Notes: generated from the sequence alone by a model not told the origin. Positions 1-15,220 are shown, counted from the stretch's first letter. The stretch is 16,794 nt of DNA from a virus (IMGVR_UViG_2547132127_000011); one strand, 5' to 3'. Translations and numbers: made by a program.

Positions 1-1230
1 ATGAGCAGAGCACTTAACAAACTGAGCGATACACAGCTGAGGAAAATCAACGGCACACCCGCCCAAAAAACAGCCTTTCTTAATGACGGTGGAAACCTGA
101 GCGTCAGGCATTCAACCAGTGGCCTTTTAACCTGGTATTTCACTTACAGGGCCGGAACGGGAAGGGGGGCACCACCGGAACGCATTAAGCTGGGAAATTA
201 TCCTGATCTGAGCCTGAAATCAGCCAGGGAAAAAGCCGCCCAGTGTCGCGCATGGCTGGCAGAGGGGAAAAATCCACGTCATGAGCTTAATTACACCGTA
301 CAGGAAGCGTTAAAGCCGGTAACGGTTGGCAATGCGCTCACCTACTGGCTTGAGTCGTACGCAAAGGAAAACCGCGTGGATTATGCCGCCCTGAAAAAGC
401 GCCTTAATAATCACGTAATACAGCACATTGGTGCTATGCCGCTGGATAAATGCGAGCTACGGCACTGGCTGGCCTGTTTTGACCAGGTGGCAAAGCGAAC
501 GCCTGTTACTGCCGGATTCTTGCTACAGACGTGCAAACAGGCGCTTAAGTTCTGCCGGAGGCGGCGCTATGCAATCAGCAACGTTCTTGATGATATGAGT
601 GTGGCGGACGTTGGGAAAAAACCGGATATAAGCGAGCGTGTCTTAAGCACCAAAGAACTGGGCGAATTATTGCAGGCACTGGACAAAAAAATATTCTCCC
701 CCTACTACATCGCGTTAATCCGCCTCCTGATTGTGTTCGGATGCCGGACGGTAGAACTGAGGTTATCGGAGATCAGCGAGTGGGATTTTACCGAAATGCT
801 CTGGACCGTGCCGAAAGAACACAGCAAAACGAAGGTGGCAATATTCCGGCCCATACCGGAAGCAATACTGCCGTTCGTCACGCAGCTGGTGGAGCAGAAC
901 AGGCACACGGGCTTATTGCTGGGGGAAGTGAAACAGGAAACAAGCGTGTCGCAGTACGGCAGATTAGCGCACAGGAGGCTAAATCACCCTCACTGGTCAC
1001 TACATGACATCCGGCGCACCTTTACAACGATGCTGAACGATTTAGGCGTGGATCCTCACGTCGTGGAGCAGCTTACAGGCCACCAGATGCCAGGAATGCA
1101 GCGAGTTTATAATCATTCCCGTTATCTGGATGCTAAACGCAATGCGCTGGATATGTGGACGGAGCGGTTAGGGATACTGGCGGGAACACATGAAAACGTA
1201 ACCACGCTACCAGTAGCCAGAAGAAAATAA
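1..1230 (+). CDS. int: Tyrosine recombinase / integrase, P4-like
   Basis: 409-aa ORF with C-terminal catalytic region (HDIRRTFTT...LTGHQ...VYNHSRY) typical of the phage integrase family; N-terminal region resembles P4-type integrases. ORF starts at window position 1, so the true start and the left attachment site lie at or beyond the window edge. Confidence 0.88.
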   Translation: MSRALNKLSDTQLRKINGTPAQKTAFLNDGGNLSVRHSTSGLLTWYFTYRAGTGRGAPPERIKLGNYPDLSLKSAREKAAQCRAWLAEGKNPRHELNYTVQEALKPVTVGNALTYWLESYAKENRVDYAALKKRLNNHVIQHIGAMPLDKCELRHWLACFDQVAKRTPVTAGFLLQTCKQALKFCRRRRYAISNVLDDMSVADVGKKPDISERVLSTKELGELLQALDKKIFSPYYIALIRLLIVFGCRTVELRLSEISEWDFTEMLWTVPKEHSKTKVAIFRPIPEAILPFVTQLVEQNRHTGLLLGEVKQETSVSQYGRLAHRRLNHPHWSLHDIRRTFTTMLNDLGVDPHVVEQLTGHQMPGMQRVYNHSRYLDAKRNALDMWTERLGILAGTHENVTTLPVARRK

Positions 1231-1285
1231 TTTTTTTCGTGTTTTTTCAGTATGCGCATACTGGATATGCGAACAGATACAACGT

Positions 1286-1325
1286 GCAACAATGAGCAAC
1301 AATGCGGAACAACTACGAACAAGAG
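1286..1325. promoter_or_regulatory. Four tandem 10-bp units each with AACAA core (GCAACAATGA GCAACAATGC GGAACAACTA CGAACAAGAG); candidate protein-binding array
   Basis: Read directly: AACAA at 1288, 1298, 1308 and 1318, exactly one helical turn apart. Its reverse complement (TTGTTCGTAG TTGTTCCGCA ...) closely matches the array at 6982..7010. Confidence 0.4.
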
Positions 1326-1419
1326 GTGAAAAAGTGTACAGATTTATAAGTAGCTGATTTTTAATGTGTTACTGATTTTTTATACACTAGCGAATCACTC
1401 TTTAAATAGCGAGAAAAAA

Positions 1420-1451
1420 GGCATGAAACAATATTTCATGCCTTTGTATTA
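1420..1451. terminator. Hairpin GGCATGAAA-caatat-TTTCATGCC flanked by A-run upstream and T-rich tract downstream; candidate bidirectional intrinsic terminator
   Basis: Perfect 9-bp inverted repeat with 6-nt loop followed by TTTGTATT; about 190 bp downstream of the int stop. Confidence 0.45.
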
Positions 1452-1604
1452 ACGTGAATTTAAAGGATTTTATCCTGATTATTCCTCTTTCTGTAAACCA
1501 TACGGCCTCAACATTTGCCAACTCTGAATCATCCTGACACAATCAGACACATCCCAACGCAATAGAACACGAAATAACTCTTTAAGAAACGAAAGGGGGC
1601 AATA

Positions 1605-12597: not shown

Positions 12598-14242
12598 GTA
12601 CGCAGAAGACGTAAAAACGGGCAAAATTCCGGCCTGTAAACGGTTAAAACAGGCTGTTAAACGGTACTTTTCGGACCTTAAAAGCCCCCTTTACACGTTC
12701 GATCGTGAGGTTGTGGAGCGGTTTATTGCCTTTTCCAGGGTGTGCCCGCACGTAAAAGGACCGATGCGTGGCAGACCCATTGAGCTGGAGCCGTGGCAGC
12801 AGTTCGCCTTTGCGTGCATCCTCGGCTTTAAGGTTAAGGCCACCGGACGGCGCAAATACACGAGCGCCTTTATCGAAGTGCCGCGCAAAAATGCGAAATC
12901 CACGACCGCCGCGATTCTGGCTAACTGGTTTCTGATTATGGAGAACGGTCAGCAGGATATCTACACCGCAGCGGTGAGCCGTGACCAGGCGCGGATCGTG
13001 TTTGATGATGCGCGTCAGATGTGCCTTTTATCCCGACCGTTACGCAGGCGGGTGAATATTCAGGCGCATAAGGTGATACACCCGAAAAGCAACAGCCTGT
13101 TAAAGCCGCTGGCAGCAAAAGCGGCAACCATCGAGGGGACAAACCCCAGTCTTTCCATCGTGGACGAATACCACCTACACCCCGATAACGGCGTTTATTC
13201 CGCGCTTGAGCTGGGGATGGGCGCACGTCCCGAAGGGCTGTTATTTGCCATTACCACATCGGGCAGTAACGTCGTTTCAGCCTGTAAACAGCACTATGAT
13301 TATTGCTGCCAGATCCTGGACGGCGAAGAGGTCAACGATTCAATTTTTGTACTGATTTACGAACTGGACGACGAAAACGAGGTTGATGATCCGGCGATGT
13401 GGATAAAGGCGAACCCTAATATTGATGTTTCCGTGGATCGTGAAAAACTGGCCTCAACCATCCAGAAAGCGCGGGGTATTCCGTCGCAGTGGGTGGAGAT
13501 GATGACAAAGCGATTTAATATCTGGTGTCAGGGGACTACCCCGTGGATGGGTAATGGTGCATGGGCTGAGTGTGCCGGAACGTTCACGGAGGAAGATTTA
13601 CACGGTCAGGAGTGTTACGCGGGGCTGGACTTATCATCAACCAGCGATATTTCCAGCGTATGCTATGCCTTTCCGGTCGGTAAAACCATTATGCTGATTT
13701 CCCGTCATTATCTGCCGGAGTTCCAGCTACAGAACCCCGCCAATAAAAACCGCGCTGTCTATCGCCAGTGGGCTAAAGCGGGCTGGATACGCACAACGCC
13801 AGGTGACTGCATTGATTACGACCGGATCAGAGATGACATCATGCAGGATGCGGAGAAATTTAATATCAGGCTGGTGGGCTTTGATACGTGGAACGCCACG
13901 CATCTCAGGACGCAATTACAGGGGGCTGGTTTTGAGGTGGAGCCGTTCCCGCAAACCTACCTCAGATTCAGTCCGGCGGCGAAATCGTTCGAAGTTTTTG
14001 TTAACCGCAGGGTGATTGTGCATCGTGGCGATCCGGTGTTGTCCTGGTCGATGAGTAACGTCGTGATGCAGAGTGACGCGAACGCCAATATCAAGCCGAA
14101 CAAGAAAAAATCACCGAACAAGATAGACCCGAGCGTAGCGGCGCTGATGGCGTTTGGTACATTCCAGGCAGAGCATGAGGATTTTGCTTTTGATATAAGC
14201 GACAGCCACCGCCAGAAACTGGAAGAATTTAGCGGGGTGTAA
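12581..14242 (+). CDS. terL: Terminase large subunit
   Basis: 553-aa ORF, TTG start with GAGGA upstream, overlapping the terS end; N-terminal ATPase region and C-terminal nuclease region typical of the terminase large-subunit family. Confidence 0.9.
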   Translation: MTAWNKYAEDVKTGKIPACKRLKQAVKRYFSDLKSPLYTFDREVVERFIAFSRVCPHVKGPMRGRPIELEPWQQFAFACILGFKVKATGRRKYTSAFIEVPRKNAKSTTAAILANWFLIMENGQQDIYTAAVSRDQARIVFDDARQMCLLSRPLRRRVNIQAHKVIHPKSNSLLKPLAAKAATIEGTNPSLSIVDEYHLHPDNGVYSALELGMGARPEGLLFAITTSGSNVVSACKQHYDYCCQILDGEEVNDSIFVLIYELDDENEVDDPAMWIKANPNIDVSVDREKLASTIQKARGIPSQWVEMMTKRFNIWCQGTTPWMGNGAWAECAGTFTEEDLHGQECYAGLDLSSTSDISSVCYAFPVGKTIMLISRHYLPEFQLQNPANKNRAVYRQWAKAGWIRTTPGDCIDYDRIRDDIMQDAEKFNIRLVGFDTWNATHLRTQLQGAGFEVEPFPQTYLRFSPAAKSFEVFVNRRVIVHRGDPVLSWSMSNVVMQSDANANIKPNKKKSPNKIDPSVAALMAFGTFQAEHEDFAFDISDSHRQKLEEFSGV

Positions 14243-14255
14243 TGAGGTCAGCAGC

Positions 14256-14537
14256 ATGACAGAAGCCGAAATACTGCGATTAATCCGCCGCGTCTCTGGA
14301 ATCAGCCAGCAGGCTGACGAACAGACCACGCAGCCGGACAGCGTGACAGCCGAAAATTATGCGCGTGTTGTTGCTGAGGTGATGCGCCGTGATGGTATCC
14401 AGCTTAATGATGCGGATATGCGCGACATACGGATCCGCGTTCTGGAAATGCTGGCCTACAATCGCCGCGTTGAACTGTATCGGGAGAAGGAGAAAATCAC
14501 GTACCACTGGAAGAAGCCGGAGCGGTTACGGCGGTAA
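14256..14537 (+). CDS. Hypothetical protein (93 aa) at the island right end
   Basis: ORF track; GAGGT 8 nt upstream of the ATG; last plus-strand gene before the junction region. Confidence 0.55.
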   Translation: MTEAEILRLIRRVSGISQQADEQTTQPDSVTAENYARVVAEVMRRDGIQLNDADMRDIRIRVLEMLAYNRRVELYREKEKITYHWKKPERLRR

Positions 14538-15190
14538 CTCACTGAGATTAAAGCAAAGCGCAAAATTGCGCTGGCTACATCCCTCACATCTGAGGACTGT
14601 TAACCAGCAGGCCGGAATATATTCAGAAACTACGAAATTTTCGCAGTTTAATTACTCGTCAGCTTAATCGCTAACCCGCTCTGATATTTTCGGAAACCTC
14701 AATTTGAGGAAGTCGGCGAGGTAACTGTTTGATATTCCCGATAGCGCAAAAATGCGCGGTCGGGCAGAATGACCACCACCTCAATCGTGACGGAGAGTGA
14801 CAACCAGTGACACACCGTGACAAAAAGACGGTTTAACCGTTCATTAAAAATCGACGTGATTTTGTGCTTTCCGGATGACGTGGCCAACGTCATTTTTTAG
14901 CGAAAAATTCTGATTAAGGTCACTGGCTGAACGGTCATAATGACCACGCAGACCATCGAGGCAACCATAGCGATCATCGTTACGGTTGGAGCTTTTCCGC
15001 CATTGGTGGAAAAGGTGCACATCTGGATCATCATTACGGTGATCAAGGGTATGTAAAACCCACCAGCCTGATTAAAGGTTAACCGGAAAAAAAATCCGGT
15101 AGCCCCGTTATGGGGATCCCCATATCGACATTAACGCCCCTCATGAATTGGTGCGCTTCCCCCTGGAAAGATTACCCGCCTGTATATTTC

Positions 15191-15220
15191 TTGTGTCTAT
15201 TTGTTCCACGTTGTTTCATA
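15191..15220. promoter_or_regulatory. Three 10-bp-phased TTGTKY units (TTGTGTCTAT TTGTTCCACG TTGTTTCATA) near the island right boundary; candidate regulator or integrase arm-type site
   Basis: Contains the exact 15-mer TTGTTCCACGTTGTT also found at 6992..7006; lies about 120 bp from the phoQ stop. Confidence 0.4.

Follow-up and report, generated by a model that had tools for sequence, protein, structure and literature searches.

The 16,794-nucleotide sequence analysed here, referred to as the window, is the viral stretch IMGVR_UViG_2547132127_000011, which begins with an integrase gene and ends with phoQ. In all likelihood, the island between these two ends is a capsid-forming phage-inducible chromosomal island (cf-PICI) of the EcCIEDL933 type, located at roxA/phoQ in Shigella flexneri and present there as a defective copy that is decaying neutrally. 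An earlier note on this DNA had described a tail-less satellite island with int, alpA, a P4-family primase/helicase with iterons, and then a series of head and packaging genes on one strand. Our Pfam searches recovered this content, with the capsid, protease, portal, head closure, connector, HNH, terS and terL genes in this order and all on the + strand. The main features are listed below (aa, amino acids; ORF, open reading frame; att, attachment site), followed in brackets by the protein identity to EcCIEDL933, the prototype cf-PICI.

1-1230, + strand: tyrosine integrase (Int), 409 aa, intact; Pfam Arm-DNA-bind_3 and Phage_integrase (408/409, 99.8%)
1605-1793, + strand: alpA, activator of the PICI cycle, 62 aa, intact; Pfam Phage_AlpA, E = 5e-18 (98%)
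3767-5515, + strand: P4-type primase/helicase, 582 aa, intact; Pfam D5_N, DUF5906 and Pox_D5
5523-5760: iteron origin, 10 copies of TNTCTACC, 5 on the + strand and 5 on the - strand
6394-6555, + strand: ssb'-'perC (pchE-like) fusion ORF, 53 aa, in frame; 25-aa SSB N-terminus joined to a PerC C-terminus
7222-7233 and 8002-9156, + strand: major capsid gene (HK97 fold), split by IS1; Pfam Phage_capsid over two adjacent in-frame ORFs (378/385, 98%)
7234-8001, - strand: IS1, 768 bp, insA/insB intact, with terminal inverted repeats; Pfam DDE_Tnp_IS1, E = 1e-73
9196-9768, + strand: prohead protease, Peptidase_S78, ORF intact (97%)
9770-10981, + strand: portal, ORF intact (396/403, 98%)
10978-11316, + strand: head closure (head completion) protein (96%)
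11313-11609, + strand: gp6-like head-tail connector (98%)
11609-12049, + strand: HNH endonuclease (99%)
12033-12215, + strand: 60-aa ORF (100%)
12268-12597, + strand: terS, 5'-truncated, P27/Terminase_4 family, Terminase_4 match at 12286-12597 (remnant, 100%)
12581-14242, + strand: TerL, ORF intact, ATPase and nuclease domains (547/553, 99%)
14256-14537, + strand: orf93, conserved, 93 aa, phrog_1561 (94%)
15326-15335: attR core GGACATATTT, overlapping the phoQ stop codon, from the alignment of the K-12 empty site, attL and attR
15334-16794, - strand: phoQ, right of the island
9826-9835 of the S. flexneri left-flank contig (L004): attL core GGACATATTT, 175 bp left of window base 1

The iterons reported in the earlier note stand out clearly from the background: the 10 matches to TNTCTACC in the 16.8-kb window all fall within 5530-5755, just downstream of the primase, while 0.89 would be expected by chance.

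Insertion site and family assignment

The host is indicated by the identity of the window to the S. flexneri assembly GCA_026013175.1 (100%, contigs L004 and L017) and to S. flexneri 5b 8401 (99.96%, CP000266.1). The exact Int and primase sequences are also annotated as Shigella flexneri in the sources, where the primase is named a P4-family primase of this species. Since the first base of the window is that of the int ATG, attL lies outside it. The earlier note had advised extending the sequence leftward in search of attL and a matching direct repeat, and the extension into the flanking contig recovered the same core as that found at attR. In the K-12 roxA-phoQ intergenic region (L009), this core is present once, as GGGCATATTT, with one mismatch to GGACATATTT. 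On these alignments, integration is attributed to the island's own tyrosine integrase, acting at the 10-bp core GGACATATTT between roxA and phoQ.

The roxA gene was kept upon insertion and is intact directly left of int. Two details of the earlier note must thus be corrected: the island is inserted between roxA and phoQ and not where K-12 has roxA, and its right end, which had been placed at 15220, extends to the attR core at 15326-15335. The island measures 15,500 bp in the S. flexneri strain including 777 bp of IS1 and its target duplication, and 14,723 bp without them. A tRNA scan of the window found none, so the island is not tRNA-associated.

Most of the features that characterize cf-PICIs were found in this island. 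It has the integrase at one end (Int at 1-1230) of a site-specific insertion bounded by the core at attL and attR, followed by alpA and a PICI-type replication module composed of the primase-helicase and its origin. Its own head module (capsid, prohead protease, portal and head-tail connectors) is recognizable by homology, all structural proteins matching HK97-type families, and its own packaging module comprises HNH, TerS and TerL, with terS truncated at the 5' end. With Pfam and PHROGs, none of the ORFs of the window matched a tail, baseplate or lysis family, in agreement with the earlier note. Tail or lysis genes left of int, which that note had named as contrary evidence, were not found either, as roxA occupies this position; roxA and phoQ flank the island directly, and its size is within the range of about 10-16 kb. 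What this copy lacks is a fully functional set of head and packaging genes, because the capsid gene carries IS1 and a nonsense codon (W276*) and the start of terS is deleted. The self-encoded head and packaging module proposed in the earlier note, in which IS1 was not mentioned, therefore holds for the presence of the genes by homology and fails for their function, as capsid and terS are broken and self-packaging appears lost. Judged from its genes, the island is a member of the cf-PICIs by descent, not by function.

The earlier note had left open whether this lineage had been described. The comparison with published cf-PICIs identifies it as an already known lineage of a system first reported in 2022-2025, the window carrying an allele of EcCIEDL933 and neither a working nor a new system. 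According to its published description, EcCIEDL933 is 15.4 kb long, carries int, alpA and rep followed by capsid, protease, portal, connectors, HNH, terS and terL, and lacks tail genes (bioRxiv 10.1101/2022.09.08.507074). The sole element found between roxA and phoQ of the EDL933 chromosome agrees with this, as it is a block of 15.4 kb that extends from int, alpA and rep through capsid to terL (L011, about 30.1-45.6 kb). The same element had earlier been named CP-933C, OI-51 or Sp7 and located beside phoQ, the corresponding legend giving "ycdF and phoQ" (PMC3378721). Besides the protein identities listed above, both islands share the attB between roxA and phoQ, the attR sequence, the RgdR/DUF4222 gene and four sites of TTGTT repeats. 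In contrast, the Rep of EcCIEDL933 has a DUF927 domain whereas the primase of the window has D5_N/DUF5906, and the N-terminal ~225 aa alone can be aligned; several small accessory ORFs also differ, in a mosaic manner. EcCIEDL933 (about 15.4 kb, against 14.7 kb for the S. flexneri island without IS1) carries none of IS1, W276*, the deletion in the terS/cos region and the ssb-perC deletion of the S. flexneri copy.

Mosaic relatives are present in other E. coli, at roxA/phoQ in RM6927 and CE10 and at tqsA/mdtJ in O103:H2 and others, with 97-98.4% DNA identity over the packaging module. These copies are intact and encode a capsid of 385 aa and a TerS of 118 aa; some of them have a different integrase and attachment site; CE10 has the same 582-aa primase type as the window. 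At least 80% of the packaging module was found in 404 of the 5426 complete E. coli genomes. A scan of IMG/VR with TerL gave 563 relatives; most of the 80 that were listed have identifiers taken to be those of IMG isolate genomes (prophage predictions), so that their ends were considered uninformative for locating cos.

Other satellites share parts of this organization. Classical PICIs such as EcCICFT073, which occupies the same chromosomal location in CFT073 (PMC3378721), have the same int-alpA-pri/rep left arm and a helper-dependent induction via AlpA, but they lack capsid, portal and terminase genes and redirect helper capsids by Rpp. A classical PICI was rejected given the capsid, portal and terL homologs in the window. 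Similarly, satellite P4 resembles the island in its P4-family integrase, AlpA/Vis-like regulator, alpha-type primase-helicase and Icd-like genes, but it remodels P2 capsids with Sid and Psu and has no capsid, portal or terminase of its own. No homologs of sid, psu or delta were found in the window using Pfam and PHROGs and, with an own head module present, a P4-like satellite was also rejected. The head module itself resembles those of HK97 and of the Rhodobacter capsulatus gene transfer agent (RcGTA) in its HK97-fold capsid, S78 protease, portal, gp6-like connector and HNH-assisted packaging at cohesive-end (cos) sites. However, HK97 differs in being a complete, tailed phage whose head is T=7, and RcGTA, which packages host DNA, lacks an integrase, att sites and a replication module.

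Lesions, their spread and selection

The capsid gene starts at the ATG at 7222, and its first four codons (ATG CAG AGA ATA, 7222-7233) are separated from the remainder by IS1. The insertion lies in codons 2-4, interrupting the gene after codon 4, and is flanked by a 9-bp target duplication, CAGAGAATA, at 7225-7233 and 8002-8010. Removal of IS1 and one duplicate restores a capsid frame of 385 codons, colinear with the intact relatives and containing a single in-frame stop, W276*: the codon at 8824-8826 is TGA, in place of the TGG of every intact relative. The protein rebuilt in this way matches PDB 9GYI (E = 1.7e-252), which is the 3.24-Å T=4 capsid of EcCIEDL933 according to the paper describing the structure. 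The next-closest solved structures are the RcGTA capsids 6TB9 and 6TBA (E about 1e-45), rather than that of HK97.

A further lesion affects the packaging module. Alignment with the RM6927, O103 and CE10 elements revealed a 98-bp deletion at 12260/12261, whose junction (12254-12267) lies between two CCCCGCC repeats, one copy remaining at 12261-12267. The deletion removed the ATG of terS, its first 7 codons, its ribosome-binding site and about 75 bp upstream, and the remnant contains no ATG, GTG or TTG start before codon 16, while TerS of the intact relatives is 118 aa long. In HK97-type systems with HNH, cos is located between HNH and terS. Because of this HNH-cos-terS arrangement, the region lost upstream of terS probably contained the cos site. 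The fourth lesion, the ssb-perC fusion, results from a deletion of ~503 bp relative to EcCIEDL933, in which positions 36864-37366 of the EDL933 locus (L011) are missing (junction 36863/37367).

Taken together, these lesions predict a copy unable to form heads or to package itself: no heads would be made because there would be no capsid protein, and the DNA would be neither recognized nor cut because TerS would not be translated and cos is probably gone. Three points weigh against this interpretation. The loss of function is deduced from the sequence. Our literature search found no mapped cos for the EcCIEDL933 family, and the loss of this site is thus argued from the gene arrangement. In addition, the UGA can be read through at a low level and a truncated capsid could be started at an internal ATG at 8050, so that traces of a near-full-length protein are conceivable. 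Such readthrough was considered insufficient to rescue the capsid because IS1 also severs the gene from its start and promoter.

The distribution of the lesions shows their relative order. W276*, the terS deletion junction and the ssb-perC junction were present in every S. flexneri locus covering them, and these three lesions were absent from all E. coli loci examined. In contrast, IS1 is confined to the sublineage of the window, other S. flexneri (L005, L098-L104) having an empty site with a single CAGAGAATA. As 4623 indexed blocks of the assembly collection contain the truncated TerS product, the defective form is the standard S. flexneri allele. In S. flexneri CP004056.1 (L104, 632-2385), the primase is split into ORFs of 193 and 241 aa, with a small insertion at the position corresponding to 4234 of the window, which is a further decay step in another sublineage.

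The substitution patterns differ strongly between defective and intact copies. Among the S. flexneri copies, we counted 17 nonsynonymous and 6 synonymous substitutions in the ORFs of the element (11 and 4 in the head and packaging ORFs alone). Over these head and packaging ORFs, a pair of intact E. coli elements is separated by 33 nonsynonymous and 159 synonymous substitutions, and the contrast is significant whether all S. flexneri ORFs (Fisher p = 5e-8) or just those for packaging (9e-6) are taken. Intact copies are thus under strong purifying selection, and the S. flexneri pattern indicates relaxed selection and fits neutral decay following inactivation, although the S. flexneri substitutions are few (23) and unpolarized, which must be set against this conclusion.

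Accessory left arm, repeats and alternative readings

The remaining ORFs of the island are mostly located around the replication module:

1843-3465: variable accessory region of small ORFs (PHROGs, NCBIfam)
2297-2476, - strand: YlcI/YnfO or Arc-like ORF, 59 aa, in the accessory region
2606-2806, + strand: Icd-like ORF, in the accessory region
3471-3770, + strand: DUF4222 protein (Pfam DUF4222), orthologue of RgdR (ECs1581), 99 aa, RGD at residues 20-22
5804-6384, + strand: two conserved small ORFs, 92 aa and 101 aa, phrog_1231 and phrog_27268
6697-6921, + strand: conserved 74-aa ORF upstream of the capsid operon, phrog_1957, 95% identical to the EcCIEDL933 copy

At 1843-2597, where a 248-aa ORF on the + strand overlaps two ORFs on the minus strand, one of 109 aa and the 59-aa YlcI/YnfO or Arc-like one, it is ambiguous which strand is coding. 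Here the AT skew turns negative (-0.25), gene callers differ between assemblies, and the protein encoded by the 248-aa ORF is just 67% identical to its EcCIEDL933 counterpart, the DNA being 95% identical. No defense system was matched by PADLOC among ten accessory ORFs.

The RgdR orthologue raises the question of whether S. flexneri has kept the island for its regulators or cargo (RgdR, AlpA, Icd-like and others) after the loss of mobility. In O157, RgdR is encoded by CP-933C, activates LEE type III secretion (LEE, locus of enterocyte effacement) and represses motility (PMC3378721). The S. flexneri protein is 88% identical to the EDL933 copy, and its frame is open over the full length, RGD motif included, despite the decay of the island, which is moreover present in thousands of S. 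flexneri assemblies, as judged from the 4623 blocks with the truncated TerS. Nevertheless, the substitutions within S. flexneri are also mostly nonsynonymous in the left arm (3:1 in the primase, 1:0 in rgdR and 2:0 in orf101), the primase is split in one strain (L104), and the persistence of the island is equally explained by the loss of excision or packaging together with clonal descent. Domestication therefore seems to us an unlikely explanation.

A related idea concerns a 10-bp-phased repeat, TTGTTCCACG (TTGTT-N5-TTGTT), which has 4 matches in the window versus 0.03 expected. The repeats are located as follows:

1278-1322, - strand: four TTGTT-N5 repeats between int and alpA
6982-7006, + strand: TTGTT-N5 repeats upstream of the capsid operon
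15201-15215, + strand: TTGTT-N5 repeats adjoining attR
9912-9936 of the S. flexneri left-flank contig (L004): TTGTT-N5 repeats adjoining attL
30240-30264, 31606-31650, 37883-37907 and 45478-45492 of the EDL933 locus (L011): TTGTT-N5 repeats in EcCIEDL933

The same four places carry the motif in EcCIEDL933, RM6927 and the O103 element, and no published description of these repeats was found in the literature searched. They are candidate sites for AlpA, acting as an activator or recombination directionality factor, or candidate arm-type sites for Int. A further-reaching proposal is that S. flexneri retains the island, in spite of its dead head and packaging half, because infecting phages still elicit a response from the left arm (alpA, RgdR orthologue, Icd-like genes, primase and origin), which might then regulate host genes or act as a decoy against phages, and that the TTGTT repeats are an AlpA operator tying excision to head-gene expression across cf-PICIs; we give this little credence, similar to that given to domestication.

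Less probable still is that the island is the remnant of an HK97-like temperate phage whose tail and lysis genes were deleted. The O157 orthologue was described by Flockhart et al. in such terms ("cryptic prophage CP-933C, highly degraded, P4 remnants"; PMC3378721), and the head and packaging genes do belong to phage families. However, 404 of 5426 complete E. coli genomes carry the tail-less form of ~15 kb, which is precisely bounded by its att ends and recurs at several attachment sites, with tail and lysis modules absent from the loci of EDL933, PA20, RM6927, CE10, O103 and S. flexneri as well as here. The left arm is of the PICI type (int-alpA-rep), EcCIEDL933 has been shown to be a helper-dependent satellite forming T=4 capsids, and the intact copies are under strong purifying selection (33 nonsynonymous versus 159 synonymous substitutions). 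The least tenable reading, implied by the title of the earlier note, is that of a fully functional cf-PICI making its own small capsids and needing helper tails alone. In its favor, all module genes are recognizable in the canonical order, and int, alpA, primase, protease, portal, connectors, HNH and terL are full-length. The sequence nevertheless contradicts it: the capsid gene is split by IS1 and contains a nonsense codon, terS has neither a start codon nor a ribosome-binding site, transfer of EcCIEDL933 is abolished by single mutations in any of these genes, and the ratio of nonsynonymous to synonymous substitutions in S. flexneri is near neutral.

Other non-coding repeats are present toward the right end of the island:

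14530-14760, between orf93 and attR: degenerate repeat units of ~48 nt with small hairpins
14796-14823: run of GTGAC(A) repeats, CGTGACGGAGAGTGACAACCAGTGACACACCGTGAC

The ~48-nt unit corresponds to CGGTAAC..TGATATT..CGA with a short hairpin after it, for example CCTCAATTTGAGG or GCGCAAAATTGCGC, and was found by repeat search and manual alignment, as Tandem Repeats Finder did not resolve it. The number of copies varies, with the fewest in RM6927, which lacks a 172-bp segment at the position corresponding to 14572-14742 of the window, a larger number in the window, and 4-5 for each repeat family of EcCIEDL933 (L011, 44744-45181). Rfam gave no match over the whole window at gathering thresholds and none in 14200-15400 at E <= 1. 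The GTGAC(A) run is present in RM6927 and not in EcCIEDL933. Outside the island, potA, two genes left of roxA, is uncalled in the left-flank contig (L004, 5985-7356) and divided into two ORFs in L007 (1-1123), which suggests that it is a pseudogene in these S. flexneri genomes.

The cycle of intact relatives and the fate of the S. flexneri copy

The defective state of the S. flexneri island is best understood from the cycle that published experiments have shown for its intact relatives. A helper phage turns on alpA, after which the element excises and is replicated from the iteron origin by the primase-helicase that it encodes. Small T=4 capsids of the HK97 fold are then formed from its own capsid, protease and portal proteins, and its own HNH, TerS and TerL package cos DNA into them. 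The heads, completed with the head closure and connector proteins, are released tail-less and joined to the tails of the helper phage. In the intact family, AlpA is needed for induction and the packaging genes, save the hypothetical gene 1792, for transfer and for packaged DNA of the size of the island; single mutants in the packaging genes of EcCIEDL933 abolished transfer, with the exception of 1792, whose mutant was only severely impaired (bioRxiv 10.1101/2022.09.08.507074). Published work also showed the release of T=4 capsids without tails, to which tails can be joined, and, according to published experiments, the intact family requires helper tails only. Helper-phage induction and tail dependence have been demonstrated for EcCIEDL933 only.

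In the S. flexneri copy, excision and replication on induction may be retained, since int, alpA, the primase and the origin all seem undamaged. Beyond this point the cycle would stop and, because there would be no heads and no self-packaging, the island would be inherited vertically and would decay neutrally.

Surveys of active cf-PICIs should therefore leave out the S. flexneri copy, given that its capsid and terS are dead. This copy provides a dated example of the decay of a satellite in a host-restricted pathogen, where three ancestral lesions were followed by IS1 in one sublineage. If the 98-bp deletion were shown to cover cos, it would also help to place the packaging site of the cf-PICI family.

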